The notes beneath the pieces are model-generated. The model saw nothing but the letters and a program-made list of their open reading frames with translations, had not been told where the DNA came from and made no database searches. 46,831 nt of DNA from a candidate division WOR-3 bacterium (GTDB lineage: Bacteria; Hydrothermota; Tepidihabitantia; B36-G15): the NCBI GenBank assembly GCA_003645615.1, contig QNBE01000001.1:1-46831 (forward strand). The letters are read 5' to 3'. The first letter of the stretch is position 1. Every line of letters begins with the position of its first letter. Below are positions 6,478-46,244 of this stretch, piece after piece. The position numbers and the translations under genes were made by a program.

Positions 6478-6502
6478 TGACAATCTTTAAGGAGGTGTGG
6501 AT

Positions 6503-6766: not shown

Positions 6767-6775
6767 GAGGATGAG

Positions 6776-16934: not shown

Positions 16935-16951
16935 CGTCACCTCCTTTTCAA

Positions 16952-22777: not shown

Positions 22778-22797
22778 ATCTCCTCCTTCCACCTGAA

Positions 22798-25023: not shown

Positions 25024-25111
25024 TTTATCATAGTTCAAGGGTTTTCGGGAATTTCCCTGCTGCACGGGCACAGACCTTGTGAAAGAACCCGAGCGGGAAA
25101 GGAGGATAAAA

Positions 25112-30858: not shown

Positions 30859-31215
30859 TTAACAGAGTGGTAGAATTGGTTGATCCGGTGATCTGGGGTT
30901 GGGAACAAGTTTCTTATCTCTCGGTGATATATGCCAGTCCATCTCTTCGAGTGGGATGGCACCCAGAAGTGGCTCAGCACCACGGGGCAGTTCGATTACA
31001 CGGACTTGGCACACCCTCCCTTGGACTTCTATCTCGGCAATACCCATCACCCGATACAGATGTTCACCGCCATCGGCAGTATAAACCTTGACTTCTCCCA
31101 ATTCTTCCAGCTTGAGTTTCTCGATCAAATCCGCAGGTAACGAAAGCTCAAGTGCACCAGAATCGACAAGTTTCTCTGGGCGAAGAAAACGGTTCTGCGA
31201 TCTTAATATCCCCAC
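30859..31215 (-). CDS. Retropepsin-like (clan AA) aspartic protease
   Basis: Active-site-like motif LVDSGALELSLP, downstream LLGAIPLEEMD, and ~118 aa length, all typical of bacterial/archaeal single-domain retropepsin-like proteins. The GTG start overlaps the upstream gene by 13 nt. Confidence 0.55.
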   Translation of the reverse strand: MGILRSQNRFLRPEKLVDSGALELSLPADLIEKLKLEELGEVKVYTADGGEHLYRVMGIAEIEVQGRVCQVRVIELPRGAEPLLGAIPLEEMDWHISPRDKKLVPNPRSPDQPILPLC

Positions 31216-31802
31216 TCCTCTCTCAAGTAGACCTTCCGCCGGCAGTCCGGACAGAGGATCCGAATGTGGTCAGATCGATAGGGGCGCACCTCTCCCGGTG
31301 CCGGAGCGATCTCCCCACCAAGGTCGTAGGACTTGGTGAGGAAGAGGGTGGGATTGGCATAGGATAACTCACCGAGACGGTCAGCGAGCCAGATTAGATG
31401 ATCCCGGGCGGTGATCTTCTTACCGCAGATCTCACAGAAGGCGAGCTCCTTCTCGATCACCTCCCCGAACTCTTCTTTTCTAATCCGGGAGAGTTCATAC
31501 TCTGGGGTATGATAGATCCCCTCTCCGGTAATACAGGCTTCAACACAGAGGGAGCAGAAGATGCAACGCTCCGGGTGGTAGATTAGTTTTCTTACCCTTC
31601 CCTGATCGATCGTCTCCCTCGCCTCGGTTGGGCAGACCTCAGAACAGGCACCGCAGCCGACACACTTCTCCTCCCGGAACTTAATATAACCACGGAAGGT
31701 TGGCGCGGCCGGTTTCGGTTTCTTGGGGAAGGGGTGGGTATAAGGGCCTTTGAATATTGCCCGTAACGCCTCACCCAGTTCTCGGAGCTTAGGTTTTTTC
31801 AC
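31203..31802 (-). CDS. NuoI/HycF/MbhN-like 2x[4Fe-4S] hydrogenase subunit with a C-terminal CxxC...CxxC extension
   Basis: Cluster motifs CVGCGACSEVCP and CIFCSLCVEAC, plus CEIC(x52)CPDC. GTG start with SD GAGGTG, overlapping the upstream stop. Confidence 0.75.
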   Translation of the reverse strand: MKKPKLRELGEALRAIFKGPYTHPFPKKPKPAAPTFRGYIKFREEKCVGCGACSEVCPTEARETIDQGRVRKLIYHPERCIFCSLCVEACITGEGIYHTPEYELSRIRKEEFGEVIEKELAFCEICGKKITARDHLIWLADRLGELSYANPTLFLTKSYDLGGEIAPAPGEVRPYRSDHIRILCPDCRRKVYLREEWGY

Positions 31803-32272
31803 CTCACACCTCGAGTTAAAGGGGTAACAGAGGGCTGAGAGGAGGCTGATAGAAGGCTATTAAGGGGAAGATTATTCATTGACGCTCCTTCGCTAATGCT
31901 TTCTTGGTTTTTAAAGCCTGAATTAGACGATCCAATAGATACATTGTACCAACAGCACAATTCATCATCTGTGATATAACCCTTCCGTTTGATCCGACGA
32001 ACTCTCTCACGTAATTCCCCAATTGATCTCTTGCTATAATGTAAAAATCTTAGATACTCACCCAGAGAACCACTGTAATATCCTTCAACAAAGTTGGCTC
32101 CGATTGAATCTGAAGCATTATCTATCTGAGACTTCATTCTAAATTCATGTTTAGGTATTCTTTTTAAAATTTTTTGGACAATTATATCAAGTTTATCGAT
32201 GTTCTGCCAGACGATCATCTTCTCATGGCCTCTCAGCTTTCCCTTTCGTCCTTTGTAGCCTTCTTGAGCCAT
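31799..32272 (-). CDS. Four-helix-bundle protein (23S rRNA intervening-sequence protein / Avd-like family)
   Basis: MIVWQNIDKL...IPKHEFRMKSQIDNASDSIGANFVEGYYSGSLGEYLRFLHYSKRSIGEL matches the vWq...P..E...sQ...A..Si.aN..EG...fL..s..S..E pattern of this family. The body of the gene is visibly AT-rich relative to its neighbours. An alternative start is the ATG at 32218. Confidence 0.7.
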   Translation of the reverse strand: MAQEGYKGRKGKLRGHEKMIVWQNIDKLDIIVQKILKRIPKHEFRMKSQIDNASDSIGANFVEGYYSGSLGEYLRFLHYSKRSIGELRERVRRIKRKGYITDDELCCWYNVSIGSSNSGFKNQESISEGASMNNLPLNSLLSASSQPSVTPLTRGVR

Positions 32273-32292
32273 TTCAAGCCCTCTTAAACCCT

Positions 32293-32643
32293 CTATCTGT
32301 CTTCAATCCTCTCACCACCAAGCTTTTCCTTACCATATCGGTCGAGAACCGATCCTTTCCAGAGTTTGATCCCGAAGATGATCGAACCACGCATCAGGGC
32401 ATGGGCACCAACCGGTGAGGTGAGGAGGATGAAGAGGCCACAGATCAGGGCCTTGATCCCCATCGGGGTGAAACCGTGGATCAAGAAGATGCCGATCATA
32501 ATACCGAAGGTTCCTAAGGTGACACATTTGGTTGAGGCCTGGAGTCGGTTGTAGACATCGGGGAAGCGGATCAGGCCGAGACAGCCGAGGATATCGAATG
32601 CGATTCCGATCCAGATGATGATCCAGCCGATGGTCTCAATCAT
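32293..32643 (-). CDS. mrpG: Monovalent cation/H+ antiporter subunit G (MrpG/MnhG)
   Basis: MIETIGWIIIWIGIAFDILGCLGLIRFPDVYNRLQASTK is the typical MnhG/PhaG start. The ATG at 32643 follows AGGAGG and overlaps the mrpF stop; the ORF-track start at 32718 lies inside mrpF. Confidence 0.8.
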   Translation of the reverse strand: MIETIGWIIIWIGIAFDILGCLGLIRFPDVYNRLQASTKCVTLGTFGIMIGIFLIHGFTPMGIKALICGLFILLTSPVGAHALMRGSIIFGIKLWKGSVLDRYGKEKLGGERIEDR

Positions 32644-32890
32644 CGAGCCTCCTCTTACCCAGATACTTGGCCAAGGCCAAAACCCCGATGAAACTGAGGA
32701 TGGTGAGGGCGATGGCAAGATCTAAGAGGTAGGGGAGCTTAAACAGGACCGCCATCAGTGCTGTGATACCGACAAATATGATTCCCATGATATCGACCGC
32801 AACCATCCGATCTGAGATGGTCGGTCCGAGCAGGATCCGATAGAAACAGAGAAAGGCGCAAAGGGCCAGGAATGAGATCATGACGATCAT
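32636..32890 (-). CDS. mrpF: Monovalent cation/H+ antiporter subunit F (MrpF/MnhF)
   Basis: 84 aa with three TM segments. The motif FYRILLGPTISDRMVAVD is typical of MnhF. Confidence 0.8.
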   Translation of the reverse strand: MIVMISFLALCAFLCFYRILLGPTISDRMVAVDIMGIIFVGITALMAVLFKLPYLLDLAIALTILSFIGVLALAKYLGKRRLDD

Positions 32891-33366
32891 TCGAATATCC
32901 TCCTTAAGATCTTCTCAAAGGGACGGGCGATGATCCTCGATGCCCCTTCTACATCCTGTGCCCGGACATCGATCCAGTGAATATAGAGATATTCACCATC
33001 GATATCGCAGGTCATCGTTCCCGGAGTCAGGGTGATCGAGTTGGCCAAGAAGACCTTGGCGGTATCGGTCTTTAAGATGGTTTTGATCTTGACGATCCCG
33101 GGATTGATCGGTCGGTCAGGATGGAGGACACGGAAGGCAACATCCAAATTGGCCCGGATCATGAACCAGATGAAATACGGGATATAGACCAGAAGCCAGA
33201 ACCACCGGTGGGGCTGGAGGAAACGAATCGGATGGCGGGTGAAATAGCCTCCATAGATGAGAGTGGTGAGTAGGGAGGCCAGGAGTCCGGCAATCACCGA
33301 AGACCAGTGGAGGGTGAGGGTCAAAAGGAGCCAGAGGCCAAAACCGAAGATGAAGAAGATCACCAT
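32887..33366 (-). CDS. mrpE: Monovalent cation/H+ antiporter subunit E (MrpE/MnhE)
   Basis: 159 aa with two N-terminal TM segments and a soluble C-domain. Its position between mrpD and mrpF fits, as does the motif ANSITLTPGT. Confidence 0.7.
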   Translation of the reverse strand: MVIFFIFGFGLWLLLTLTLHWSSVIAGLLASLLTTLIYGGYFTRHPIRFLQPHRWFWLLVYIPYFIWFMIRANLDVAFRVLHPDRPINPGIVKIKTILKTDTAKVFLANSITLTPGTMTCDIDGEYLYIHWIDVRAQDVEGASRIIARPFEKILRRIFE

Positions 33367-34854
33367 CTATCCCCCCAGGATGGCACGACCATAACCGGTC
33401 CCATTCAAAAGGACCTTGGTGGCGGGAATGATCAGGCTATTGAGGAGACCCTGGAACCCGAATCCGAAGAGGATCATGAGGATTACTAAGAAGAGCATCG
33501 ACAATCTCATTGAGAATGGGGTCTCCGGTGTTGAGACCTCCTTGGTGGTGAAGTAGACCTTCCTGATGATCTTCAGGAGATAGGCGAGGGTGAATACCGA
33601 GAGGATCGCAAGGAGGATGGCAAGCCAGTAGAGCTTTGCCTGGCAGGCACCGATGATGATGAAGAGTTTGGGGAAGAAACCGACCAGAGGGGGGAGGCCG
33701 GAGAGGGACAATGTCGCCAGACGATAGGACCAGGCGGTTATCCCCATCGTCTTACCAAGACCGGCCAGCTCTTCAAGATCCCGCTTACCAGTCGCATATA
33801 CTACCGCTCCCGAAGTTAAGAACAGGAGGGACTTGGTAATGGCATGGGCGAGGATGTGGAAGAGACCACCGGCGATGGCCCAGAAATTTCCGATCCCAAT
33901 TCCAACCATGATGAATCCAATCTGGGCGATGGTGGAGTAGGCCAGAAGCCGTTTATAATCTCTCTGGCGGGAGGCAATAATGCCACCGAAGAAGACCGAG
34001 ACGAGCCCTAAGAAGATGAGGATATGGAAGAAGATTGGACTGTTCTGAGGGGTTAGTCCAAAGACATTAAAGCTGAGACGGATGAGGGCATAGACCCCGA
34101 GGACCTTGACAAAGATTCCGGAAAGGATTGCCGAAACCGGGGCCGGGGCCGATGGGTGGGCGTCAGGGAGCCAGGAGTGGAAGGGGAAGAGGGCAGATTT
34201 GATCGCAAAGGAGAAGAGGAGGATGGCGGCAACAAACCAGAAGAGCTGATCCCTTCCGGCTACGGAGAGGGTATTGGCGAGATCGGCCATATTGAGGGTC
34301 GAGGCCCGGCCATAGAGAAGGGCGATGGCGAAGAGGAGGAAGAGGGAGGCGATCTCACCCATCACCATATATTTGAATGCCGCTTCCAGCTCCTCCTTCT
34401 CAATCCCGAAGGCAACCAAGGCATAGGAAGAGATGGAGGCGATCTCGACAAAGACAAAGAGATTGAATATGTCACCGGTGATCGCTACCCCCATCATCCC
34501 GGCGGTGATGAGCATAAATAGGGTATAGAATTTGACCCGACCGGTGAAGTGTTCCAGGTAGCGAATCGAGAATATCGAAGCGGCGAAGACGACAATCGCA
34601 ATTGAGATCACAATGAGTGCGGAGAGATGGTCATAGACCATCGTGATGCCAAGCGGGGGCGGCCAGCCTCCCATCTTGTAGATGATTACCTCACCCTCCT
34701 CAAAGAGATTGAGACTGTAGAAGGATAAGAAGAGGAGGATGGTGGTGATACTGTTGGCGATGAGATCAGAGAATCCCCTCCAGATCTTACTCAGGATCGG
34801 AATGAGGAAGGCACCGGCAAGGGGCAGGGCAAAGAAGAGCGGTAAGAGATTCAT
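33367..34854 (-). CDS. mrpD: MrpD/NuoN-type antiporter-like subunit (proton-conducting membrane transporter)
   Basis: 495 aa polytopic protein with Proton_antipo_M-like motifs (FPFHSWLPDAHPSAPAPVSA, LLAYSTIAQIG). Confidence 0.8.
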   Translation of the reverse strand: MNLLPLFFALPLAGAFLIPILSKIWRGFSDLIANSITTILLFLSFYSLNLFEEGEVIIYKMGGWPPPLGITMVYDHLSALIVISIAIVVFAASIFSIRYLEHFTGRVKFYTLFMLITAGMMGVAITGDIFNLFVFVEIASISSYALVAFGIEKEELEAAFKYMVMGEIASLFLLFAIALLYGRASTLNMADLANTLSVAGRDQLFWFVAAILLFSFAIKSALFPFHSWLPDAHPSAPAPVSAILSGIFVKVLGVYALIRLSFNVFGLTPQNSPIFFHILIFLGLVSVFFGGIIASRQRDYKRLLAYSTIAQIGFIMVGIGIGNFWAIAGGLFHILAHAITKSLLFLTSGAVVYATGKRDLEELAGLGKTMGITAWSYRLATLSLSGLPPLVGFFPKLFIIIGACQAKLYWLAILLAILSVFTLAYLLKIIRKVYFTTKEVSTPETPFSMRLSMLFLVILMILFGFGFQGLLNSLIIPATKVLLNGTGYGRAILGG

Positions 34855-35192
34855 CCCTTCAGCTCCTTGATCTTGGTGATATCGAAGGTCTTATGTTTCT
34901 GATAGAGCTTGATCGCGAAGGAGAGCATAAGTGCTGTGGTCGCAAGACCGATGACAATTGCGGTGAGGACTAATGCCTGAGGGATGGGATCGACAAAATT
35001 CTTGGGACCATCAACCTGGGTGATGATTGGGGCAAGGGCACCCTTCTTAAAACCAACCAGAGCGAAGAAGAAGTTGATCGCATACTCTAAGATGGCAAAA
35101 CCGATTATGATCCTGATGAGATTGGTCTTGGTGACGATGGCGTAAAGACCGATGATGATCAGGATGAGAGTGGTGATGAAGAAGAACATCAC
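34851..35192 (-). CDS. mrpC: MrpC/NuoK-like subunit
   Basis: 113 aa with three TM segments. LTAIVIGLATTAL is typical of MnhC/NuoK. Confidence 0.75.
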   Translation of the reverse strand: MMFFFITTLILIIIGLYAIVTKTNLIRIIIGFAILEYAINFFFALVGFKKGALAPIITQVDGPKNFVDPIPQALVLTAIVIGLATTALMLSFAIKLYQKHKTFDITKIKELKG

Positions 35193-35617
35193 TCCTCCAG
35201 GAAATACTTGGTTGCGGCCAAGGCTAAGAAGATTGAAAAGAGTCCAGCACCAACTTTGATCGATATCGCAATGTTGGAGAGCGGGATCGTTCCGGCGGAA
35301 AGGAGTTTGAGCGGCAGCCCCTGAGGTAGGAAGTTCAAGAAGAATAGGCTCCCCAGGAAGAGGCCAAAGAAGGCAATTCCGATGAAGAAGAGGGCACCGA
35401 TACTTTCGAAGATCGAGGCGATAAAGAACCTCTTCTTTTCACCCGATTCATCGGTCCCATAGGCCAGGACAAAGAGGACAAAGCTGCCCGCGATGATCAC
35501 CCCTCCGGCAAATCCTCCACCCGGAGTCAGATGGCCGTGGAGAACGATATAGATCCCGTAGAGGAAGATAAAACCCCCGATAATCGATGCGATCTTCCGG
35601 ACGATGAGACTCACCAC
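35189..35617 (-). CDS. mrpB: MrpB/MnhB-domain subunit
   Basis: 142 aa with four TM segments. The HLTPGGGFAGGVI motif is characteristic of the MnhB domain. Confidence 0.75.
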   Translation of the reverse strand: MVSLIVRKIASIIGGFIFLYGIYIVLHGHLTPGGGFAGGVIIAGSFVLFVLAYGTDESGEKKRFFIASIFESIGALFFIGIAFFGLFLGSLFFLNFLPQGLPLKLLSAGTIPLSNIAISIKVGAGLFSIFLALAATKYFLEE

Positions 35618-36135
35618 TTCCTCCCCAGCTTGCGCATCACGGTCAGGACCCCAATTACTGCGGTGAAAAGAACCGTTGCCTCACCAAGGGTATCGAGGGC
35701 CCGGTAATCGAGAATCACAGCTGCAACCAGATTGGCAGCACCGGTTCCGGGGATACCCATCCGGATATACTCAGAAGCAACCTTCATGATCGGGACCCCA
35801 AACTGAGGGAGGAGAAGGAGGGCCCTCACCCCGAGGATGAAGAAGACGATGGCGAAGATGGCGTAAGCCAGGACCGGTAGGGTGAGGGGTGTCCGATCGA
35901 GCGTCTCATCAACATGGGTAGTCTTTAGGATTACTGCGACCATAAATACCAAGGCCAGCACCTCGACAACGATCTGGACGATGGCTAAGTCCGGGGCCAT
36001 GAGCAAGACGAAGCCGATCGCCACCCCCATCCCCACTGCACCCAAGGAGATGATGGCGGCGAGGAGGTCCTTGATCTCGATTGCGATGATCGCAGTTATG
36101 ATCATGAATAGGGCGATGATGCCAAGGATGAACAT
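35611..36135 (-). CDS. DUF4040 / MrpA C-terminal-domain-like (MbhD/E-like) membrane subunit
   Basis: 174 aa polytopic protein. The YRALDTLGEATVLFTA motif is typical of the MrpA C-terminal / MbhE region. Confidence 0.65.
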   Translation of the reverse strand: MFILGIIALFMIITAIIAIEIKDLLAAIISLGAVGMGVAIGFVLLMAPDLAIVQIVVEVLALVFMVAVILKTTHVDETLDRTPLTLPVLAYAIFAIVFFILGVRALLLLPQFGVPIMKVASEYIRMGIPGTGAANLVAAVILDYRALDTLGEATVLFTAVIGVLTVMRKLGRKW

Positions 36136-36141
36136 GCTACC

Positions 36142-38016
36142 TCACCAGAGAAACAGGAAAAGGAAGAAGAGGCCCAAGAGGAGCCAGCTGAGATAGTTGG
36201 GCAGGATACCACTATGGGCCTCAGAGCCGACACCACCGGCAATCCGATAGATGGCGGCAATAACCTCGTAGAACTTCTGGATAAGGAATTCAATCACCTT
36301 ACCGGCCACAATACCAAGGCTGGTAAAGATTCCCACCAGATAATTGTAGAAATCGAATGCACCGCCCTTTCCAAAGGTGTAGATCTTCTCCAGCATATAG
36401 ATCTGAGGGAGTGAGGAGTAGAAATGGGTACCGGGGATTCGCCCCTCCTCACTATCGATCTCCTCACCACCGATAAAGATCTTCGACTCCTTGGCCCGTA
36501 GTGCGGTCCCGAATAGATAGATGAGGAGACCGATTAGTAGGCCGATCAGGAGCAGAATAGTAGCGAGGACTGGTTGCCAGAAGCCGAGGGCTTCGATTCG
36601 GGTGGGGAGGATTGGCTGGATGATCCGGGCGATCGGCACCGAATAGGCAAAGACACCAAAGACGATCGCCCCAACGGCCAGAAGTAGTGGCGGGAACCAT
36701 CCATTGACCGTGGCCTCCTGGATCCGATCAAGATCGAGATCCTTGGGTGGTTCTGAGAGGAAGGTTGCATAGAGTAGTTTGAGGATATAGGCGAGAGTGA
36801 GGACGCTCCCAAACATCGCTGCAATGAGGAAGGCGGGCCAGAGCCAGTGTGATCTCGACTGGATGATCGCCTGATAGATCATCCATTTCGAGCAGAAGCC
36901 AGAAAGCGGTGGCACCCCGGCGAGGGCAAGACCAGAGATGAGGAAAGAGAAGAAGGTGATGGGCATTACCTTAGCCAGGCCTCCGAGATCCTCCAAGTTT
37001 GATCGACCGGTTGCCGCCTCAACCGACCCCAAGGTGAAGAAGAGGCCGGTCTTGTAGATGATATTATTGAACATGTGGAAGAGGGCGCCAGCGATCCCGA
37101 TCGGATGGAGCGTCCCCAGACCAACAATGATGTAACCCGCCTGACCGATTGTCGAATAGGCGAGAGTCCTCATTCCGTTGGGTTGGATCAGGGCCATGAA
37201 GACGCCGATTACGATCGTGATCGAACCGATGATCATAATCAGTAGCGCAATTGAAGGGCTGGGAATGAAGATCCTGGTGAGGAGTCTGATCAGGAGATAG
37301 GTGCCCAGGATCTTATCCAGGACCGAAGGGAGGAAGGCCATCGTGGCTGGAGGAACGACATCGGCCGATTTCGGTATCCAGGTGTGGAAGGGGAAACCAC
37401 CGATCTTGCCCACCCCTCCGGCCAGAATGAGGATGAATCCGGCGATGGCGATCGGTGAGGTGAGGGGCTTGGGGAAAGGCGGGGTGAGGGAACCGATCCC
37501 GATCGTGGTGAGGAGGAGAACGATCCCGAGCAGCATGGCGAAGTCGGAGGCACCGAGGAGGAAGAGGGCCTTCTGGGCCGCGGCCGAGGGATCACGACCC
37601 TCCTTTCCAACCAGAAGCAGGCCGAAGACAATGGCGAGGAGGAAGCCCCAGAAGAAGAGGAAGAGGATGAGATCGCTGGAAAGGAGGGCACCAAGGCTTA
37701 TCCCCAAGGCGATCGGGATATAGACGAAAAAGCGATCACGGATCTTCTGATTGATTGCATAGAGGACAACCAAGAAGGTGAGGACGGAGGTGGCGATGGA
37801 TAGTGTTACACTCAAAAGATCGAGTTGGAAGATAATCGGGACCGGTGGGGTGAGACGGATGGTGAAGGAACCAGGAAGAAGGCCTAAGAGTTGGATAGAA
37901 TAGTAGGTTGAGATAGCCGAACTGATGAGGGCAAGCCACCTCGATATCCTCTTGATCACCATCCCGATCAGACCGAAGACGATCGGGGTGAGGATGAGAT
38001 CGGTAATCAGAGCCAT
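36142..38016 (-). CDS. NuoL/MrpA/HycC-type antiporter-like subunit
   Basis: 624 aa polytopic protein with Proton_antipo_M core motifs (FPFHTWIPKSADVVPPATMA, LAYSTIGQAGYI) and a long C-terminal extension. Confidence 0.75.
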   Translation of the reverse strand: MALITDLILTPIVFGLIGMVIKRISRWLALISSAISTYYSIQLLGLLPGSFTIRLTPPVPIIFQLDLLSVTLSIATSVLTFLVVLYAINQKIRDRFFVYIPIALGISLGALLSSDLILFLFFWGFLLAIVFGLLLVGKEGRDPSAAAQKALFLLGASDFAMLLGIVLLLTTIGIGSLTPPFPKPLTSPIAIAGFILILAGGVGKIGGFPFHTWIPKSADVVPPATMAFLPSVLDKILGTYLLIRLLTRIFIPSPSIALLIMIIGSITIVIGVFMALIQPNGMRTLAYSTIGQAGYIIVGLGTLHPIGIAGALFHMFNNIIYKTGLFFTLGSVEAATGRSNLEDLGGLAKVMPITFFSFLISGLALAGVPPLSGFCSKWMIYQAIIQSRSHWLWPAFLIAAMFGSVLTLAYILKLLYATFLSEPPKDLDLDRIQEATVNGWFPPLLLAVGAIVFGVFAYSVPIARIIQPILPTRIEALGFWQPVLATILLLIGLLIGLLIYLFGTALRAKESKIFIGGEEIDSEEGRIPGTHFYSSLPQIYMLEKIYTFGKGGAFDFYNYLVGIFTSLGIVAGKVIEFLIQKFYEVIAAIYRIAGGVGSEAHSGILPNYLSWLLLGLFFLFLFLW

Positions 38017-39227: not shown

Positions 39228-40399
39228 CGCCGATACCTCTCCCTCAGCATCCTGGTCTTGGCCCAGGATCTCTCAAGAAGCTCCTTGCCACCACCGATCA
39301 CTTTGCCATCCTGGATAATTACGGTCCGCTCGGTGCAGCAATAACAGGGATCGACCGCTGCCAGGACCAAAGCGGCATCGGCAATCGAATAGCCGACCAC
39401 CGCAACCTCATTGGAAGGGATATTATTATAGCTCGGGGCCCGGACCTTGTGGCGGACCGGGCTCTTACCGCCATCGGAGCGGACATAGTGGAATACTTCC
39501 CCCCGTGGTGCCTCATGGCGACCGATCCCTTCACCTCTCGGGATCTCATCGACCCTTACCTCAATCTCCCCCTCGGTCATCTTTTCCAAACAACCCCTGA
39601 TGATCTTGATCGACTCCAGACATTCTAAGAGCCTCACCTTGGCCTTGGCCAGAACATCGCCCTCATCAAAGACGATGATATCCCAGGGGACAAGGTCATA
39701 GGCAGCATAGGGGTCGTCCTTCCTCACATCGATCGCAACCCCGGAACCCCGGGCGGTTGGACCGACCACAGAATAGGCGATCGCCTGTTCTCTGGTAAGA
39801 ATCCCGACCCCTTCGAGCCGGGCCCGGATGACCGGATCATCCAGGATCGCATTGGTGAACATCAGGGTCTTCTCCTCCAGCTCATTCAGGACCCTCTCGA
39901 TCGCGGGATAATCCTCCTTTCTGATATCCCTCCTCACCCCACCGATCTTATTTATCGCATAGTGGTTCCGATTACCACAGATGAGTTCACACAGATCAAG
40001 GAGCGGCTCCCGATATCGCCAGACCCACATCCAGACCGTATTATATCCGATGAAGTGGCCGGCCAGTCCGACCCAGAGAAAATGGGAATGGATCCGCTCC
40101 AGTTCACCGACAATAGTCCTTATATACTTGGCCCGTTCCGGGATCTCGATCCCGGCCAGATCCTCGACCGCATTGACATAGGCGAAGGGATGGGAATCGG
40201 AGCAGATTCCACAGATCCGCTCGACCAAGAAGGTTACCTGATCGAAGGTCTTGCGCTGAGAGATGAACTCATGGCCACGGTGGTTATAGCCGATATTGAT
40301 CTCAAGACCGACGACCTTCTCCCCTTCTACAATCAGCTTGAAGAACTCCGGTTCTTCCTGGAGCGGGTGGTAAGGACCGATCGGAACGACCCTACGCAT
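39224..40399 (-). CDS. Group-4 [NiFe]-hydrogenase large subunit (HycE/MbhL/NuoD-like)
   Basis: Both Ni-Fe ligand motifs are intact: RICGICSDSH near the N-terminus and DPCYCCTER near the C-terminus. A 33-aa tail follows (TVIIQDGKVIGGGKELLERS...), resembling the cleaved HycE extension. Confidence 0.85.
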   Translation of the reverse strand: MRRVVPIGPYHPLQEEPEFFKLIVEGEKVVGLEINIGYNHRGHEFISQRKTFDQVTFLVERICGICSDSHPFAYVNAVEDLAGIEIPERAKYIRTIVGELERIHSHFLWVGLAGHFIGYNTVWMWVWRYREPLLDLCELICGNRNHYAINKIGGVRRDIRKEDYPAIERVLNELEEKTLMFTNAILDDPVIRARLEGVGILTREQAIAYSVVGPTARGSGVAIDVRKDDPYAAYDLVPWDIIVFDEGDVLAKAKVRLLECLESIKIIRGCLEKMTEGEIEVRVDEIPRGEGIGRHEAPRGEVFHYVRSDGGKSPVRHKVRAPSYNNIPSNEVAVVGYSIADAALVLAAVDPCYCCTERTVIIQDGKVIGGGKELLERSWAKTRMLRERYRR

Positions 40400-40808
40400 A
40401 ATCCCTCCGGAGCGGATATTTCCCTCTGGGCCAGTCCTCAGCGGTAAGGAGGGGTCTGGGATCGGGATGGTTCTTGAACTCGATCCCTAAAAGCTCCATG
40501 ATCTCCCGCTCGATCCACTTAAAGGCGGGATACCACTGACCCAAAGACTCCTGCCAGGGTTCATCCTTGGGAATCTTCGCCTTTACCGTGTAGATGATCC
40601 CGGTCTCATCCTCGGAGAAGTGGTAGAGGATCTCGAAGCACTCCCGGGTATCGATACCGGTTGCGGTCGAGAATCTCAAACCCTTCTCCTCAAAGAGATA
40701 ACGGCAGAGAGGGATTGAGGTCTCGCGACCTACGGTCAAGTAGATTCGTTTATCATTATGGATCTTCACCTCTGCCTCGGGGAACTTCATCTTGATCTCC
40801 TCGATCAT
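40392..40808 (-). CDS. NuoC/MbhK-like hydrogenase subunit
   Basis: 138 aa. It sits between the NuoB-like and large subunits, and the motif WIEREIMELLGIEFKNHPD is typical of NuoC/HycE-N. Confidence 0.75.
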   Translation of the reverse strand: MIEEIKMKFPEAEVKIHNDKRIYLTVGRETSIPLCRYLFEEKGLRFSTATGIDTRECFEILYHFSEDETGIIYTVKAKIPKDEPWQESLGQWYPAFKWIEREIMELLGIEFKNHPDPRPLLTAEDWPRGKYPLRRDYA

Positions 40809-41221
40809 AGGTTCTTCAGGGCCTTCACCACCCCGGCGATGATCGTCTCCGGTTTGGGCGGACAGCCGGGGATGTAGACATGGACCGGGAGGTGCTTATC
40901 ATAGGGACCGGTAACATTATAGGAGACGGAGAAGATATTGGGATGGCAGGCACAGGTTCCAACCGCAATCACCAAGCAGGGCTTTGGGGTCTGCTCATAG
41001 ACCCGGAGCACCCTGGGTAGATTCTTCCGGTTGAGGATTCCGGTAACGAGAAGGGCATCGGCATGTCTTGGAGATCCGACCAGGAGGATGCCGAACCTTT
41101 CCACATCAAATCTGGGGGTCAGGGCATCCAGGATCTCGATATCGCAGTTGTTACATGGTGCTGCGGCAACATGGAAGACCCATGGCGATTTTTTTAATCC
41201 CCAGAGTTTGATACCCATCAC
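40805..41221 (-). CDS. NuoB/HycG/MbhJ-like [NiFe]-hydrogenase small subunit
   Basis: Cysteine pattern CNNCDIE ... GTCAC ... IPGCPPKPE for the proximal [4Fe-4S] cluster. Confidence 0.85.
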   Translation of the reverse strand: MMGIKLWGLKKSPWVFHVAAAPCNNCDIEILDALTPRFDVERFGILLVGSPRHADALLVTGILNRKNLPRVLRVYEQTPKPCLVIAVGTCACHPNIFSVSYNVTGPYDKHLPVHVYIPGCPPKPETIIAGVVKALKNL

Positions 41222-42129
41222 AACCCCACCAATGCCAGGATCAGGCCGATAAGGGATAGAATACCGAGCCCGATCCAGAAGAACTTGAGGGCCTGATCGA
41301 TCCGGAGTCTGGGATTGGTATTCTTGATCAGGACGATAAGGACAACGATCACCAAGAATTTAACAATGGACCAGGGGCTGGCCATACCACCCCAGAGGAT
41401 AGTAATCAGAAAGACCGGGAGGACAAAGAAGAGCATTGCCCTGGTCAGTTTGAAGATGGCGAGGGCGACACCGGAATACTCTAAGTAGGGGCCAGCCATA
41501 ATCTCCTGTTCCGCCTCTGGGATGTCGAAGGGGACGAAGGTGAGCTTGGCCTGAGTAACAATGAGGAAGACCAGACCGGCGATAACGCCGGAGAAGGAAT
41601 AGAGGAGAGGGCCATAGAGCTTCTGGTGGATGATGATCTCACCGATCTTCAAAGATCCGGTTTTGATCACAGCAATTGCAACGGCAATAAGGAAGGGAAG
41701 CTCGTAGCCGAAGAAGAGGGTCATCTCTCGTGAGGCACCGACACTACTGAGTGGATTCCGGGCCGATGCACCACCAATGATTACTGAAAGTGGTGGTAGT
41801 GCCAGGAGATAGATGATGACGATAATATCACCAACAAAAGATAGGTCGGGATGGAAGTTCATAAGGAAGAGCATGGTCGACACGACATTAACCCCGATAA
41901 GCCCTAAGAATGGGGCTAAGAGAAAGGCAACTTTCGATGCCCCCTTAGGTACGAAGGTCTCCTTTAATAAGAGCTTGATAAAATCGGCATAGGGTTGATA
42001 GATCGGAGGTCCGACCCGCCACTGGATCCGGGCGGTCACCTTCCGATCGATCCAGGTGAGGAAGAGGCCGATGCCACCGGTGAAGAGAAGGCCGGGATAG
42101 ATTACGAAGTTGATGATCGCCTTTATCAT
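41218..42129 (-). CDS. NuoH/HycD/MbhM-like membrane subunit
   Basis: 303 aa polytopic protein with NuoH-type motifs DRKVTARIQWRVGP and FDIPEAEQEI. Confidence 0.8.
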   Translation of the reverse strand: MIKAIINFVIYPGLLFTGGIGLFLTWIDRKVTARIQWRVGPPIYQPYADFIKLLLKETFVPKGASKVAFLLAPFLGLIGVNVVSTMLFLMNFHPDLSFVGDIIVIIYLLALPPLSVIIGGASARNPLSSVGASREMTLFFGYELPFLIAVAIAVIKTGSLKIGEIIIHQKLYGPLLYSFSGVIAGLVFLIVTQAKLTFVPFDIPEAEQEIMAGPYLEYSGVALAIFKLTRAMLFFVLPVFLITILWGGMASPWSIVKFLVIVVLIVLIKNTNPRLRIDQALKFFWIGLGILSLIGLILALVGL

Positions 42130-42590
42130 CGGGTCCTCCGGAAGAAGGGGGATCGGGAGGAGATCATGATCCCGGTCTCAACCTTTTCAAGTTCATCCCT
42201 GGTGATGAACCTCAAAGCACCGGTGGGACAGGCACTGACACAGCGGGGACCGGTCTCAAGATCGGGACAGTAGTTGCATTTCTGGGCAACATGAAAGGAG
42301 AGGGGTGGTGGCATCACCCCGAAGGGACAGGCGATGACACAGGAGAGGCAGCCGACACAGTGGAAGAGAGCCCGCTCAATCCGACCATCCCCCTTCCGCT
42401 CCAGGGCCTCGGTCGGACAGGCGTTGAGACAGAGCGCATTCTCGCACTGACGACAGGCGGCCGGTAGGGCAACTTCGGGTTCCAGCTCAGCGATGTTGAT
42501 TCGGAACTCACCGAAATGGGCATAACAGGCAGCACTGCAGGAGTGGCAGCCGATACACCGGTCGAGATCTAAGTAGATCTTCCTCTCCAT
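42126..42590 (-). CDS. HycB/HydN-like poly-ferredoxin (multiple [4Fe-4S] clusters)
   Basis: Four Cys groups: CIGCHSCSAAC, CRQCENALCLNACP, CVGCLSCVIACP and CNYCPD...CVSACP. Confidence 0.8.
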   Translation of the reverse strand: MERKIYLDLDRCIGCHSCSAACYAHFGEFRINIAELEPEVALPAACRQCENALCLNACPTEALERKGDGRIERALFHCVGCLSCVIACPFGVMPPPLSFHVAQKCNYCPDLETGPRCVSACPTGALRFITRDELEKVETGIMISSRSPFFRRTR

Positions 42591-44011
42591 AGCCTCACCT
42601 CGGTCGGGATAAGATTACTTCCCGAAAAGGAGAAGAGCGGCCAGGTCTGGGGGGAGTCGATTGGGATAGTGGCCACTCCCTCGGGAAGCAGCGGATGAAC
42701 TCTTGGCTCAGCCTCGATGCTGTAGCTCTTGGTGCCAACACGGACGGTATTATAATCGGTAAGCCTCATTCTGACCAGATCCTTCTGACTTAGCCAGATC
42801 CAGAGCGGTCTCTGAAAAAGATCGCGAAAGTGGATTGGTGAGGGAACACCATAAAGGGTAATTGTTCCCTTACCCTTCTTTCCTCTCCCTTCAATGCGAC
42901 GGAAGAGGAAATCATCATCAACAACCACCGGTTCATAGCGAAGGGGTTTGATACCGGTGGCGATCATACCGATCAATTTCTCAATCGGATAGACCCCTGA
43001 TGGGGGTGGGAAAGGTTCCGCAGTCTCAAAGCCACCCACCGTCCGCACCTTTCCTCCCTTCTCGGCACTAATTGCCGCCGGGAGGAGGATCCAGCCCCGC
43101 TTGGGCTCGATGGTGAAGGTGGTGGTGGTGATCAATCTCACCCCCTTTAAAAGATCGGCGAAGTAGAGGAGTTCATCACCGAAGTTGAGGATGAGTTTTA
43201 TCTTCCCACCCTTCACATCCCGGATCAGATCCTCAAATGTGCCATCGCCGGACCAACCAACCTTTGTGGTAATGGTGATCACCTTCTTCTTCAGAGAGCG
43301 AGCTAAATACTGGAGGGCGAGACCGGCCGCAACCGGATCTGAAAACCGGGCTGGAGTTATCGCTCCGATGATGAGGGTCGGATGCTCTTTCACATCTGCC
43401 ACCATCGATGCAAACTCTTTTCGCTCCAGGACCTCGGTTAACCCCTTCGCCTCCTCACCCGGAGAAAGAGGGAGGAAATGGTCGGCAAAGGAGACGATCC
43501 GGGAGGGTAATGAATCGAGGTGGTAGAGAACGGTCCCCTTCCGATAGCGGAAGTTGAGGATGGAGTTAGCGATGATCGGACCGGCCTCAAAGAGACTGCC
43601 GAAGGTGATCAATCTTTCGGCGGATTCAATCTCGGAGAGGTTTCCTACCGTAACCCCATCGAGCTGGAAATCGCCTCCACCCAGACCGATCGGGATGATC
43701 CGGACCTTAAGCGCCCGGGCCAATCCCCTGATCAGCTGAAATTCATCTAAGGTCAGCTCACTGCCCACCGTGATCACCATCGACTCCTGATAACGGGAGA
43801 TAAGATCCTTTATCTTCTTAATTGTCGCCTCCCAGGAGGTGGGTAGGAATTCAACCACCGGGTTGGTGAGACGACGGCCACTCTTCAAGAGGATCTCATT
43901 GGCACAGCCCCGGGCACAGAGTCTTCCATCCCTATAATTGAGGCCAATAATTCCGAGGTCATCGGTATCGACCGCAAATCGGCAGGCGAGGTTGCAGTAG
44001 CTACATCTCAT
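42569..44011 (-). CDS. Short MopB (molybdopterin oxidoreductase/formate dehydrogenase alpha)-like protein, probably without a Mo/W active site
   Basis: An N-terminal C3-x2-C6-x3-C10-x22-C33(ARG) motif matches the MopB [4Fe-4S] domain (compare FdhF CPYCASGC...LCLKG). A C-terminal beta-barrel-like segment is present (LWIWLSQKDLVRMRLTDYNTVRVGTKSYSIEAEPRV). The protein is only 480 aa and has no Cys after residue 37. Confidence 0.6.
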   Translation of the reverse strand: MRCSYCNLACRFAVDTDDLGIIGLNYRDGRLCARGCANEILLKSGRRLTNPVVEFLPTSWEATIKKIKDLISRYQESMVITVGSELTLDEFQLIRGLARALKVRIIPIGLGGGDFQLDGVTVGNLSEIESAERLITFGSLFEAGPIIANSILNFRYRKGTVLYHLDSLPSRIVSFADHFLPLSPGEEAKGLTEVLERKEFASMVADVKEHPTLIIGAITPARFSDPVAAGLALQYLARSLKKKVITITTKVGWSGDGTFEDLIRDVKGGKIKLILNFGDELLYFADLLKGVRLITTTTFTIEPKRGWILLPAAISAEKGGKVRTVGGFETAEPFPPPSGVYPIEKLIGMIATGIKPLRYEPVVVDDDFLFRRIEGRGKKGKGTITLYGVPSPIHFRDLFQRPLWIWLSQKDLVRMRLTDYNTVRVGTKSYSIEAEPRVHPLLPEGVATIPIDSPQTWPLFSFSGSNLIPTEVRLWRGRST

Positions 44012-44829
44012 AAGAAGGGATCCTCCTTAAGATCCTTGATCATATCCCAGGTGAGGACCGGACCATCCTTACAGACATAATAGGGGCCCAAGCGGCAGTG
44101 GTTGCACTTGCCGATACCACAGGACATATTCTTCTCCATCGAGAGATAGATCGTCTCCGGAGCAAAACCGGCCTCAACCAGTCTCATGGTAACAAACTTT
44201 AGCATGATCGGAGGTCCGCAGACGACCGCAACGCTATTCTTAAAGTTGACCGGAATCTCCTCTAAGATTACCGTTACCACCCCGGTCGGTCCCTTCCAGG
44301 TCTCATCGCCGACATCGACCGTCTGGACGATATCAAGCTTCTTCACTTTTTCCCACTCGGGGAAGAGGCGTTTATAGACGATATCCTTAGGGGTCCGGGC
44401 CCCATACCGGAGATAGATCCTCTTGAAATCTCGGACCCGATCGAGCAGGGCAAGGAGGAGAGAACGGAGCGGGGCCATACCGACCCCACCACCAACGATG
44501 AAGATCTCCTTCCCCTTCCAGCTGTCGATCGGATAGGGCTTACCATAAGGTCCCCTGATCCCTAAGAGATCGCCGGGTTTGAGTTCGAAGAGGGCGGAGG
44601 TAACCCTCCCCACCTTCATGATGGTGAGTTCTAACTTCTCTGGATCATTAGGATTGGAGGATGGAGTGAACGGGGCTTCACCAACACCGGGAACGGTCAG
44701 CTCCACGAACTGACCGGCCTCAAAATCGATCGGCTTGGAATCGAGGACAAAGGTCCTTATCGTAGGCGTCTCCTCAATCACTTCCTTAAGACGGCAGGGC
44801 AGTGGGGTGTAGGGGTTCTTCACTGCCAT
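44008..44829 (-). CDS. Sulfhydrogenase gamma / AsrB / PyrK-like FAD-NAD(P)-binding [2Fe-2S] subunit
   Basis: FAD/NAD fold motifs (GQFVELTVPGVGEAPFTPSS, GPYG, FIVGGGVGMAPL) and a C-terminal cluster CGIGKCNHCRLG..YVC. The preferred start is the ATG at 44829 (MAVKNPY...). Confidence 0.8.
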   Translation of the reverse strand: MAVKNPYTPLPCRLKEVIEETPTIRTFVLDSKPIDFEAGQFVELTVPGVGEAPFTPSSNPNDPEKLELTIMKVGRVTSALFELKPGDLLGIRGPYGKPYPIDSWKGKEIFIVGGGVGMAPLRSLLLALLDRVRDFKRIYLRYGARTPKDIVYKRLFPEWEKVKKLDIVQTVDVGDETWKGPTGVVTVILEEIPVNFKNSVAVVCGPPIMLKFVTMRLVEAGFAPETIYLSMEKNMSCGIGKCNHCRLGPYYVCKDGPVLTWDMIKDLKEDPFL

Positions 44830-45797
44830 ACGATCTCCCTGATGTCGATATTGGCCGAGCACCCCTTAAGACAACGGCCACAACCGGAGCAGGCGAACCG
44901 GTCATGATACTGTTTAAAATATTCGAACTTGCAGTGGAAACGGTTCTTGAATCGTGATAGGAAGTCGGGTCTCGGATTCATTCCACCCCCGACCCGAGCA
45001 TAGGCAGCATAATAGCAGGCATCCCAGACCCTGATCCGGTCAAAACCCTTCTTGGCCTTGACATCGTAGAGGAGGAAGCAGTAACAGGTTGGACAGGCAA
45101 AAAGGCAGCTGAAACACTCAACACAGCCATCAAGTTTCTCCATCCAAAACTCATCATCATCGGGTAGTTGCTCCCTAAGTCGCTTGCCCCGATTTATCTC
45201 CTCAAGGCGGGCCATGGCTCTCTTTCTCGACTCCTCCCGGGCCTTAAGCTGGCCCTCGGTTGGCTCCGATCCCAAACCCTTACTCTCCAGGAACTCTTTA
45301 CCCCGCTTCGAAACTGGATCAATGAGATAGCCATCATCCAAGGGGGTGAGATTGAGATCGCTCCCGGCCTCGACCCAAGGGGTGAGATCTACGAGGTTAC
45401 AGAAACAGGACTCTGCCGGGGTGGGACAATCGACCGAGATAAGAAATAGCTGTTTCTTCCGCTCCAAGTAGAAAGGATCCTGGAACTCGCCCTGACCGAA
45501 TATCCGATCATAAACCCAGACCCCATAGATATCGCACTGCTTGGGTCCGATCACAATCTGTTCCGGTATCGACTTCCTCACCTCCTTGGGAAAGGAGGCG
45601 ACAAACTCCGAGGGGGGGAAGAGGAAGTTCTTAAGTGAAGATGTGGGACGGATTCCGGCCAGGGCGTCATGGTCGACATTCCCATCATACCGGTGGTAAT
45701 TGATTCTCTCCCCGGTTCGATAGGGAAGATAGACCGTTTTGGTCTCGGCCAGCCTCCTGATCAGTTGTTCCAACTGGGATCGGGAGAGGAATCTCAT
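44820..45797 (-). CDS. Sulfhydrogenase beta / AsrA-like iron-sulfur subunit
   Basis: CVECFSCLFACPTCYC ... WDACYY ... CSGCGRCLKGCSANIDI is the HydB/AsrA signature arrangement. Confidence 0.8.
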   Translation of the reverse strand: MRFLSRSQLEQLIRRLAETKTVYLPYRTGERINYHRYDGNVDHDALAGIRPTSSLKNFLFPPSEFVASFPKEVRKSIPEQIVIGPKQCDIYGVWVYDRIFGQGEFQDPFYLERKKQLFLISVDCPTPAESCFCNLVDLTPWVEAGSDLNLTPLDDGYLIDPVSKRGKEFLESKGLGSEPTEGQLKAREESRKRAMARLEEINRGKRLREQLPDDDEFWMEKLDGCVECFSCLFACPTCYCFLLYDVKAKKGFDRIRVWDACYYAAYARVGGGMNPRPDFLSRFKNRFHCKFEYFKQYHDRFACSGCGRCLKGCSANIDIREIVWQ

Positions 45798-46195
45798 CCG
45801 GTTACCCTGGCTAAGATCTCATCGATATCCCCATCCCTCAGGTGGCGGTTGACACCGAAGAAGAGTACCGGGGCGTGGGTGCGAAGCCTGAGGTAGTCGA
45901 TGAGGGTTGAGATCGGGAGAGAATGGGTTGTGATCGAGCAATCCCTGCTGGGGGAGGTAGTAAGGATGAAATCTCTATCAGATCTTATCGCATCGGTGAG
46001 GACGATCAGATCCGGATCGAGACCAACTACTTTTTCCAGATAATTCTCGGGATAGAGTCCAGCCTCAACAACCTTAAAACCCAATTCCTGCAACCGTTGA
46101 GCAAGATAGAGGCCGCGAGAGTCAGGAACGACTTCCCAATTCCCAATCGCCAGACAGACCGGGCGTTTATATCCTCTCAGTAGCTTGCTCATCAT
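45794..46195 (-). CDS. hycI: Hydrogenase maturation endopeptidase (HycI-like)
   Basis: It aligns by eye to E. coli HycI: AIGNWEVVPDSRG (compare CVGNSMMGDDGAG), LIVLTDAI (compare LLIVDAT) and ITTHSLPISTLIDYL (compare TTHNMPLNYLIDQL). The start is the ATG at 46195 or the TTG at 46207. Confidence 0.7.
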   Translation of the reverse strand: MMSKLLRGYKRPVCLAIGNWEVVPDSRGLYLAQRLQELGFKVVEAGLYPENYLEKVVGLDPDLIVLTDAIRSDRDFILTTSPSRDCSITTHSLPISTLIDYLRLRTHAPVLFFGVNRHLRDGDIDEILARVTG

Positions 46196-46216
46196 ATCAC
46201 ACGTCAAAGCGTAAGC

Positions 46217-46244
46217 ATTTTATTGAGGGGGGAGAGATTGTCAA
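46217..46244 (-). promoter_or_regulatory. Sigma70-like promoter of the hydrogenase operon
   Basis: On the minus strand: TTGACA (46244-46239), 16-nt spacer, TAAAAT (46222-46217). Confidence 0.5.

Follow-up and report, generated by a model that had tools for sequence, protein, structure and literature searches.

The 46,831-nucleotide stretch analysed here (the window) comes from a candidate division WOR-3 bacterium (GenBank assembly GCA_003645615.1, contig QNBE01000001.1, positions 1 to 46,831 of the forward strand) and carries, on its minus strand from 46207 to 31203, a 20-gene operon for a group-4 [NiFe]-hydrogenase. The operon seems somewhat likely to encode a complex of the Hun type, in which the hydrogenase is combined with an Mbh/Mrp-like ion-translocating arm, a peripheral arm resembling that of formate hydrogenlyase (FHL) and a sulfhydrogenase-type beta/gamma cap, and in which NAD(P)H would be the electron donor. 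Three observations are new relative to earlier accounts of such systems: the loss of the molybdenum site, with retention of the iron-sulfur (FeS) cluster, in a short MopB-like protein; the strict conservation of the nicotinamide and flavin sites of the flavoprotein HydG; and a series of membrane-arm variants that includes a soluble form. Eighteen of the 20 genes likely encode subunits of the complex; the other two specify a protease and an inserted four-helix protein. From the candidate promoter onward, its features are as follows.

46217-46244, minus: candidate sigma-70-like promoter, TTGACA-N16-TAAAAT (11/12 positions, top match in the region)
45794-46207, minus: HycI-like large-subunit maturation endopeptidase, 133 aa from ATG 46195 (TIGR00142, 1.8e-11, below cutoff)
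44820-45797, minus: HydB/AsrA-like poly-FeS subunit, HunA (PF17179, Fer4_22; sulfhydrogenase beta)
44008-44862, minus, likely start 44829: HydG/AsrB-like flavoprotein with flavin adenine dinucleotide (FAD), NAD(P) and [2Fe-2S] sites, HunB (PF00970, FAD_binding_6; PF00175, NAD_binding_1; PF10418, DHODB_Fe-S_bind)
42569-44011, minus: short degenerate MopB (formate-dehydrogenase-alpha-like) protein, 480 aa (TIGR01591, 3e-10)
42126-42590, minus: HycB/HydN-type four-[4Fe-4S] ferredoxin subunit, HunC (Fer4_11 and related families)
41218-42129, minus: NuoH/HycD/MbhM-like membrane anchor (PF00146, 5.8e-66)
40805-41221, minus: NuoB-like hydrogenase small subunit, proximal [4Fe-4S] (PF01058)
40392-40808, minus: NuoC-like subunit (PF00329)
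39224-40399, minus: group-4 [NiFe]-hydrogenase large subunit, HunG type (PF00346 and PF00374)
38007-39227, minus: short antiporter-like subunit, 406 aa (PF00361; best PDB match MrpD)
36142-38016, minus: long antiporter-like subunit, 624 aa, MbsH'-like (PF00361; PDB MbhH and MbsH' 6u8y_X)
35611-36135, minus: MbhD+MbhE-like protein, the C-terminal part of MrpA (PF13244 and PF20501)
35189-35617, minus: MnhB/MrpB-like subunit (PF04039)
34851-35192, minus: MrpC/NuoK-like subunit, MnhC (PF00420)
33367-34854, minus: MrpD/MbhH-like antiporter subunit, 495 aa (PF00361, 3e-71; PDB MbhH, 287 bits)
32887-33366, minus: MrpE-like subunit (PF01899)
32636-32890, minus: MrpF-like subunit (PF04066)
32293-32718, minus, likely start 32643 by the gene call on a same-species contig (L045): MrpG-like subunit, 116 aa (PF03334)
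31799-32272, minus: inserted four-helix-bundle gene of the 23S ribosomal RNA-intervening-sequence protein (IVP) family (PF05635, TIGR02436)
31203-31802, minus: NuoI/HycF/MbhN-like two-[4Fe-4S] subunit with an extra CxxC...CxxC tail (Fer4 families; PRK12387, FHL iron-sulfur subunit)

In the program-made list of open reading frames (ORFs) of the window, these 20 genes form an unbroken chain, and every one lies where an initial annotation of the sequence had placed it; the subunit labels given there are backed by Pfam and NCBIfam, with qualifications for the MopB-like, HycI-like and four-helix ORFs. Junctions were reckoned with the starts that gene callers had set on L045 and L046, two public contigs of near-identical sequence (99.9-100% at the nucleotide level). 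By this reckoning 16 of the 19 internal junctions are overlaps of 1-22 nt; in the remaining three the genes are 0, 6 and 20 nt apart, with the widest spacing in front of the four-helix gene. GGAGG-like Shine-Dalgarno sequences stand upstream of most starts and are present at the junctions 44008-44011 (4-nt overlap) and 42569-42590 (22-nt overlap), and no convincing internal terminator was found within the operon. The proposal of a single transcription unit is thus upheld by the tight overlaps, the lack of a convincing internal terminator and the tie between the input genes and the hydrogenase module in every related locus (see below). The promoter-like TTGACA-N16-TAAAAT that had been noted at 46244-46217 is present and is the best such match in the region, within a gap of ~170 nt before a divergent radical-SAM gene that is seen in related loci; it is weak evidence, because promoter-like matches overall (18, against 11.6 +/- 4.0 in shuffles) show a modest excess that stays near the shuffled expectation. 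The listed HydG ORF (GTG at 44862) overlaps HydB by 43 nt, and its likely start is the ATG at 44829, which leaves a 10-nt overlap with HydB and a protein of 273 aa; the likely start of the HycI-like gene is the ATG at 46195. A 118-aa ORF on the minus strand (30859-31215), with a weak Pfam match to retropepsin-like aspartyl proteases just below cutoff, was considered as a 21st gene and rejected. It overlaps the stop of the NuoI-like gene by 13 nt, and the gene calls for L045, a contig of the same species, omit it and have a 69-aa gene on the opposite strand; it is probably not a real gene.

Among proteins of solved structure, homologues of HydG and HydB are the gamma subunit (PDB 9nez_C, 192 bits) and the beta subunit (PDB 9nez_B, 129 bits) of sulfhydrogenase 1 of Pyrococcus furiosus, an enzyme that is NADPH-dependent by its NCBIfam name. 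All 58 distinct HydG orthologues have the FAD motif GExPFTPSS, the motifs GGGxGxAP and CGP and the four [2Fe-2S] cysteines unchanged, and because of this invariance NAD(P)H is favoured as the donor over the ferredoxin of the published prediction. On these sequence grounds a link to the NAD(P)(H) pool is plausible and better backed than that prediction. In HydB, 14-15 cysteines are conserved in 53-55 of 55 orthologues. The HycB-like subunit has 16 cysteines in four cluster motifs, all of them kept in 53 of 53 orthologues, and its solved relatives are four-cluster partners of MopB enzymes or of hydrogenases, namely HycB3 of the hydrogen-dependent CO2 reductase and HycB of FHL.

Both Ni-binding CxxC pairs that had been reported for the large subunit are there (L1 RICGICSDSH, L2 DPCYCCTER), followed by a C-terminal extension of 33 residues, a tail that fits processing by the encoded HycI-like protease. 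The protease gene heads the operon in most WOR-3 loci, and its product shares with E. coli HycI (BLASTP 2e-07) the Asp/Asp/His-containing motifs GN..D, DA and TTH, which we take to be the metal-ligand motifs of HycI. L1 and L2 are conserved in 40-41 of 41 large-subunit orthologues; within the CYCC of L2 the tyrosine is kept in 40 of the 41 and the extra cysteine in 28. The large subunit is of the Complex1_49kDa/NuoD type, scoring just 25-46 bits on sulfhydrogenase alpha models, and its PDB relatives are MbhL (298 bits, 44% identity) and HycE (266 bits, 37% identity). Of the 47 orthologues of the NuoB-like subunit, 45-47 keep each of the four cluster cysteines. The NuoI-like subunit is about equally near MbhN (57 bits) and HycF (53 bits) in the PDB, and its cluster cysteines are conserved in all six available orthologues. 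The FeS wire from HydB over HycB to the NuoB-like and NuoI-like subunits therefore appears complete, as judged from cysteine conservation in large orthologue sets for the first three and in six orthologues for the last. Given the solved relatives of these subunits and the conservation of their clusters, the peripheral arm would follow the logic of FHL, with a flavoprotein pair added at its far end.

The protein encoded between HydG and HycB is the short MopB-like one. It has no Pfam match and matches weakly the formate dehydrogenase (FDH) alpha model TIGR01591 (3e-10, N-terminal part) and, in the PDB, the alpha chain of an F420-dependent FDH (5e-4); homologues in other species match Molybdop_Fe4S4 and Molydop_binding. 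Its active site was checked by aligning 35 distinct MopB-like sequences of WOR-3/TA06 type to E. coli FdhH. All 35 keep the four N-terminal cysteines of the FS0 [4Fe-4S] cluster, and at the FdhH positions all of them lack both a molybdenum-ligand Cys or Sec and the catalytic His. At the position of selenocysteine 140 (SeCys140) there is Tyr in 30 sequences, a gap in three (the clade of the window) and otherwise His or Phe; at that of His141 there is mostly Phe or Leu, with Cys, Ile and Ala once each; and Arg333 is unconserved. In most WOR-3 proteins the active-site loop is replaced by the motif (A/S)S(T/S)Y(F/L)EPE, which is itself gone in the window's own clade. The proteins are 480-610 aa long, as compared with 715 for FdhH, so that ~180-235 FdhH residues lack a counterpart, and the protein of the window is shorter by 235.

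This subunit also evolves quickly. From the nearest species, the MopB-like protein has a non-synonymous divergence (pN) of 0.327, the large subunit one of 0.079, HydG 0.072 and NuoB 0.053. The MopB-like protein thus evolves ~4x faster than the catalytic subunits and is among the fastest genes of the operon, whereas HydG, with a pN as low as that of the large subunit, is among the slowest-evolving subunits. Across WOR-3 the identity of the MopB-like protein is 22-27%, compared with 77-80% for the large subunit. Only relative pN can be used between species, because synonymous sites are saturated (pS ~0.7), and the same-species contigs give no dN/dS signal, being 99.9-100% identical. Because the protein diverges so fast, word-indexed homologue searches yielded few relatives (two close ones from a single sequence; three from a five-sequence profile, plus seven weak matches to true MopB proteins), and the family was reached via the neighbours of the large subunit, a pattern scan of GTDB genomes and a full hidden Markov model (HMM) scan. 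The HMM scan of 1.84 billion representative proteins gave 812 matches below 1e-3, 201 of them below 1e-10. Most matches (family P0131-P0279) are 460-620 aa long, have no C-x-R-x-C-H loop and mostly keep the FS0 cysteines; in the wider short-MopB family this loop is found in a few longer proteins (637-1405 aa) low in the list, some of them without the Cys. An AlphaFold2 model built on a seven-sequence alignment was of low confidence (predicted local distance difference test, pLDDT, 57; predicted template-modelling score, pTM, 0.40). Foldseek searches with this poor model gave NuoG chains at the top and also FDHs and FdhF of FHL (E to 5e-9, TM-scores ~0.2), which supports membership of the MopB superfamily as a fold family only. 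Judged by its residues, the MopB-like protein is probably a catalytically dead FDH relic that is kept for its cluster, its shape or both and, by analogy with the NuoG relic of complex I, probably acts as a scaffold or wire.

The association of these input genes with the hydrogenase was examined in related loci, ~70 in total. The nearest named relatives of the operon proteins belong to candidate division WOR-3 or Candidatus Stahlbacteria, some being labelled TA06; with thousands of group-4 homologues scored, the matches listed include >100 large subunits of near-identical length at at least 74% identity. Among six loci picked by similarity of the large subunit alone (75-100% identity), all six have HydB, HydG and the MopB-like gene directly upstream of the hydrogenase module. 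The GTDB pattern scan, which used the MopB-like alignment and one genome per species, gave 31 loci, all labelled WOR-3, Stahlbacteria, TA06 or unclassified 'bacterium', and by tblastn their order is, wherever the contig extends, HycI-HydB-HydG-MopB-HycB-NuoH-NuoB-NuoC-large subunit-antiporter-like subunits-Mrp. A single distant sub-clade was sampled from the HMM-scan family, with large subunits 56-62% identical to that of the window; in 27 of 27 of its metagenome loci the order is HydB-HydG-MopB-HycB-NuoH-B-C-large subunit-antiporter-Mrp, as far as the contigs extend. Since three independent neighbourhood surveys find the input block kept, it is a conserved part of the hydrogenase and not a chance neighbour. 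The gene-neighbourhood query that the initial annotation proposed thus finds hydB-hydG-mopB-hycB beside the hydrogenase module in every related locus examined.

In contrast to this constant block, the membrane arm varies or is missing. Four versions were found among close relatives with large subunits at least 75% identical:

Window, L006 and others: window-type arm, with two extra antiporter-like subunits (406 and 624 aa), MbhD/E and MnhB-G
L042, 3832-15505: Mbh-like arm, with one antiporter-like subunit, small Mrp subunits and a short NuoI of 127 aa
L041, 4341-17406: large-antiporter-only arm, with antiporter-like proteins of 520, 830 and 468 aa and no small Mrp subunits
L007 (TA06 DG_26-type), 5216-11819: soluble version of eight genes, HydB-HydG-MopB-HycB-NuoB-NuoC-large subunit-NuoI

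In the soluble version NuoH and all antiporter genes are absent, HycB is intact and the large subunit is 76% identical to that of the window; neighbourhoods of this kind are common to several contigs. Operons that appeared truncated in four other loci (L014, L021, L030 and L036) were rejected as variants, the truncations being scaffold gaps of 100 N.

The membrane arm of the window is of the Mbh/Mbs type. The three antiporter-like subunits expected from the initial annotation were confirmed as Proton_antipo_M proteins of 406, 624 and 495 aa. The last is the MbhH/MrpD orthologue, with none of the four canonical Glu/Lys positions lost; the 406-aa protein keeps the equivalents of the Glu of transmembrane helix (TM) 5 and the Lys of TM7 and TM12; and the 624-aa protein keeps the Lys of TM7, TM8 and TM12, its TM5 Glu being unaligned and apparently absent. 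With these key residues largely kept, the arm looks competent. The two extra subunits (36142-38016 and 38007-39227) are 50% and 61% identical to those of the nearest species, compared with 75% for the MrpD/MbhH-like subunit, and their fast evolution may reflect relaxed constraint or a different role.

The AT-rich ORF that had been described as a four-helix bundle belongs to PF05635 and has 39.5% GC, compared with ~53% in its neighbours. Lying between the MrpG and NuoI-like genes, it is present in the same species (L045) but absent from this junction in the nearest species (L043) and in L006, and is probably not a subunit of the complex. In two other WOR-3 operons (L013 and L017), related IVP genes (~40% identity) stand between MnhC and MnhD. 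As they occupy different junctions, IVP genes appear to enter hun operons again and again, leaving translational coupling intact.

The initial annotation had considered that the architecture might be undescribed, a suggestion that does not hold. The name 'Hun' was given by Glass et al. (bioRxiv 10.1101/536078) to a supercomplex of Ni-Fe hydrogenase and Na+/H+ antiporter with 16 subunits, composed of AsrA/AsrB-like HunAB, the FeS protein HunC, a hydrogenase module and Mrp-like subunits, with the motifs CGIC/CYCC in HunG and, 'in some MAGs' (metagenome-assembled genomes), a 4Fe-4S molybdopterin-domain protein between HunB and HunC. HydDB placed HunG in group 4g, 'putatively ferredoxin-coupled', far from other 4g sequences, and the donor was predicted to be ferredoxin; the carriers were MAGs of Atribacteria, Firmicutes, Omnitrophica, Elusimicrobia and Bacteroidetes, including White Oak estuary bins, and the cultured Kosmotoga (bioRxiv 10.1101/536078). 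Matheus Carnevali et al. 2019 (PMC6349859, Suppl. Note 5) reported the same combination from Saganbacteria RX5A, called this group-4 hydrogenase 'enigmatic', and described relatives in Zixibacteria and Omnitrophica as well as a variant that lacks Mrp subunits; the RX5A system comes from another phylum, and the authors assigned no donor and left the molybdenum active-site residues unexamined. The window shares with Hun the HunAB pair at the head followed by HunC, the NuoH/B/C/D/I-like module, the Mrp-like Na-module, CGIC/CYCC and the optional MopB-like gene between HunB and HunC, and thus has every Hun feature that could be tested, the match being one of described layout and motifs. It differs in having 18 likely subunits plus the protease and the four-helix gene, as opposed to 16 subunits, in a pair of additional antiporter-like subunits encoded after the large subunit and ahead of the Mrp block, and in the donor, for which motif conservation in the window's family points to NAD(P)H and the published prediction to ferredoxin. 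Hun having been described in silico only, the match to it does not place the operon in a biochemically characterised subgroup of known role. In the literature that could be searched, neither follow-up nor biochemistry on Hun was found, and a WOR-3 review (PMC12542636), Nobu 2020 and papers on Moorella and Mesotoga contained nothing on a Hun-type complex.

Each characterised relative resembles a part of the operon. Mbh of P. furiosus (PDB 6CFW, group 4d) provides the nearest solved large subunit and MrpD-like subunit and has the same subunits of MbhD/E and MnhB/C/E/F/G type. In contrast to the window, it has 14 subunits, one of them antiporter-like, and takes ferredoxin directly without a HycB/MopB/HydB/HydG module; the window has four extra input genes and three antiporter-like subunits. 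The L2 motif reads CLSC in MbhL and CYSC in HycE, as compared with CYCC here, and the identities of the large subunit to these proteins (44 and 37%) are below the 56-62% seen in the distant clade with the same operon. E. coli FHL (PDB 7Z0S, group 4a) has the same succession of a MopB protein, four-cluster HycB, HycF-like subunit, HycG-like subunit and large subunit, with HycB and HycF homologous to their counterparts here. FHL differs in that its FdhH has SeCys140, His141 and Arg333, none of which the protein of the window has, in lacking a flavoprotein and in the 37% identity of HycE. FHL-like logic is joined to an Mrp module in Fdh-Mfh-Mnh of Thermococcus onnurineus (group 4b). The beta and gamma subunits of soluble sulfhydrogenase I of P. 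furiosus (PDB 9NEZ, group 3b) are homologous to HydB and HydG and have the same FAD, NAD(P) and [2Fe-2S] motifs, but there they serve a soluble group-3b alpha/delta pair, whereas here they accompany a group-4 NuoD-type large subunit and a membrane arm. Complex I likewise has a cofactor-less FDH relic, the MopB-like domain of NuoG (Nqo3), beside an NAD(H)-binding flavoprotein (NuoEF) in its input arm. Its NuoF is an FMN (flavin mononucleotide) protein unrelated to the FNR/PyrK-type FAD protein of the window, whose MopB relic is a separate polypeptide and whose acceptor would be H+ at a NiFe site and not quinone; the operon has no NuoE, NuoF or NuoG and has both NiFe CxxC motifs.

If the subunits assemble into one complex, as gene content, cofactor motifs and conserved synteny suggest, a donor, a direction of electron flow and a coupling ion can be proposed. 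NAD(P)H would be oxidised at the FAD of HydG and its electrons would pass through the [2Fe-2S] cluster to the FeS clusters of HydB, then, possibly by way of the [4Fe-4S] cluster of the MopB-like protein, to the four clusters of HycB, and from there over the two clusters of the NuoI/HycF-like subunit and the [4Fe-4S] cluster of the NuoB-like subunit to the NiFe site, the whole path being reversible. The MopB-like protein, as a presumed dead descendant of an FDH alpha subunit, would serve as a scaffold and perhaps as a one-cluster relay, comparable to the MopB domain of NuoG. Redox turnover at the interface of NuoH, NuoB and the large subunit would be coupled to the passage of Na+/H+ through the Mrp module and both additional antiporter-like subunits. 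When H2 is high, NAD(P)+ would be reduced and an ion gradient built; at very low H2, the electrons of NAD(P)H would be vented as H2.

Several points weigh against this proposal. The standard potentials of H+/H2 (-414 mV) and NAD(P)+/NAD(P)H (-320 mV) leave a span of ~94 mV, or ~18 kJ per H2, enough for about one ion. So small and reversible a span fits the soluble version but seems meagre for an arm with three antiporter-like subunits, and the main rival of the proposal is therefore a model with ferredoxin as part of a hub or confurcating enzyme. The published donor prediction, the only one, is ferredoxin (bioRxiv 10.1101/536078), and Hun complexes are known from genomes alone. The MopB-like protein is not an obligatory relay, since Hun operons without its gene have been reported (bioRxiv 10.1101/536078); its AlphaFold model is poor (pLDDT 57), and no conclusions on a cofactor pocket or on distances were drawn from it. 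NADH and NADPH are, moreover, not distinguishable from sequence.

The ferredoxin alternative takes two forms, which together we regard as rather unlikely: an Mbh-like H2-evolving sodium pump in which HydB and HydG relay electrons from ferredoxin, or a hub in which ferredoxin enters at the HycB or NuoI-like subunit and its electrons are shared between protons and NAD(P)+, as in a ferredoxin:NAD(P)+ oxidoreductase or confurcating enzyme. Besides being the published prediction for Hun, with HunG in HydDB group 4g, it accords with the ferredoxin dependence of the nearest solved relative of the large subunit (MbhL, 298 bits, 44% identity), with the many surface FeS proteins at which ferredoxin could dock and, presumably, with the greater driving force of ferredoxin oxidation, which would suit an extensive ion-translocating arm better. 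The pure ferredoxin route, however, leaves the invariant FAD/NAD(P) motifs of HydG (58/58) unexplained; Mbh takes ferredoxin without any HydB/HydG-like module, these two genes are kept in the soluble eight-gene variant, and no ferredoxin gene lies in or adjoins the operon. None of these points disposes of the hub or confurcating version. In a different reading, which is very improbable, the MopB-like protein would be a working Mo/W-pterin enzyme of a hydrogenlyase for formate or another small molecule, with HydB and HydG as a side branch to NAD(P). The placement of MopB beside HycB does mirror FdhF-HycB of FHL, weak HMM matches lead to FDH alpha, FDHs and FdhF are among the top Foldseek matches, and the conservation of (A/S)S(T/S)Y(F/L)EPE in most WOR-3 proteins means that some site is under constraint. 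Yet the Cys/Sec ligand and the catalytic His are both missing from all 35 sequences, Arg333 is unconserved, the C-x-R-x-C-H loop occurs just in the few longer, low-ranking family members (637-1405 aa), some without the Cys, ~180-235 FdhH residues are missing, the YFEPE motif is gone in the window's clade, evolution is fast, and no formate-channel or pterin-synthesis gene is found among the ORFs of at least 110 aa in the window. This reading was rejected on the active-site residues, which largely refute it.

More improbable still is that the first four or five genes (44008/42126-46207) specify an independent soluble oxidoreductase merely beside an ordinary Mrp-Mbh hydrogenase. HydB/HydG-type pairs do serve several enzymes, for example sulfhydrogenase and anaerobic sulfite reductase, and the association here is known from genes alone. 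Against a separate enzyme stand the 4-nt and 22-nt overlaps with Shine-Dalgarno sequences at 44008-44011 and 42569-42590, a synteny that is invariant over ~70 loci with large-subunit divergence down to 56%, the persistence of the block where the membrane arm is replaced or lost and the absence of any encoded catalytic partner for HydB/HydG besides the hydrogenase; it was rejected on synteny. Returning to NAD(P)H as the donor, a broader proposal can be put forward tentatively, and with less confidence than the reading of this operon: Hun could be a reversible ion-translocating NAD(P)H:H+ oxidoreductase and not a ferredoxin-driven Mbh look-alike, and its input arm, a dead FDH scaffold with an added flavoprotein, could be a convergent re-run of the origin of the NuoG/NuoEF N-module. 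With the graded forms, from the soluble eight-subunit one over the single-antiporter to the multi-antiporter ones, it would be possible to compare directly what each membrane module contributes energetically.

Outside the operon, the window carries housekeeping genes. Among its ORFs of at least 110 aa there is no hyp, nuoE/F/G, moa/moe or formate-channel gene, in agreement with the initial annotation, which had listed NuoE/F/G, ferredoxin, formate channel and hyp genes as absent (for ferredoxin, the search covered the operon and its surroundings). On the minus strand at 15834-16940 lies the gene for a bifunctional fructose-1,6-bisphosphate aldolase/phosphatase of archaeal type (PF01950, E 2.5e-186), an enzyme typical of thermophiles and of lineages that branch deeply. 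Beta-propeller or FG-GAP proteins are encoded at 14860-15849, 20399-22792, 24487-24957, 25079-27514 and 28149-28979, the last three with Por_Secre_tail (type IX secretion) C-terminal sorting domains, and FlgD-Ig domains occur in 20399-22792 and 25079-27514. A minus-strand ORF at 28077-28877, which overlaps one of the beta-propeller/FG-GAP ORFs, has no family match and is probably spurious.

For the window itself, the outcome is mainly the correct annotation of an already named system that has been described only computationally. Hun is a widespread respiratory hydrogenase for which a cultured carrier is available, and Hun-type operons occur in WOR-3, TA06 and other phyla of sediments and the subsurface. 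The place of these organisms in models of carbon and hydrogen depends in part on which redox carrier the operons tie to H2. If the complex is NAD(P)H-linked and ion-coupled, fermenters could dispose of NAD(P)H as H2, with an ion gradient paying for the reaction or gaining from it; we know of no characterised group-4 enzyme that does this. The dead MopB subunit, together with the natural soluble and alternative-arm variants, would offer a useful comparative system for the evolution of complex I.

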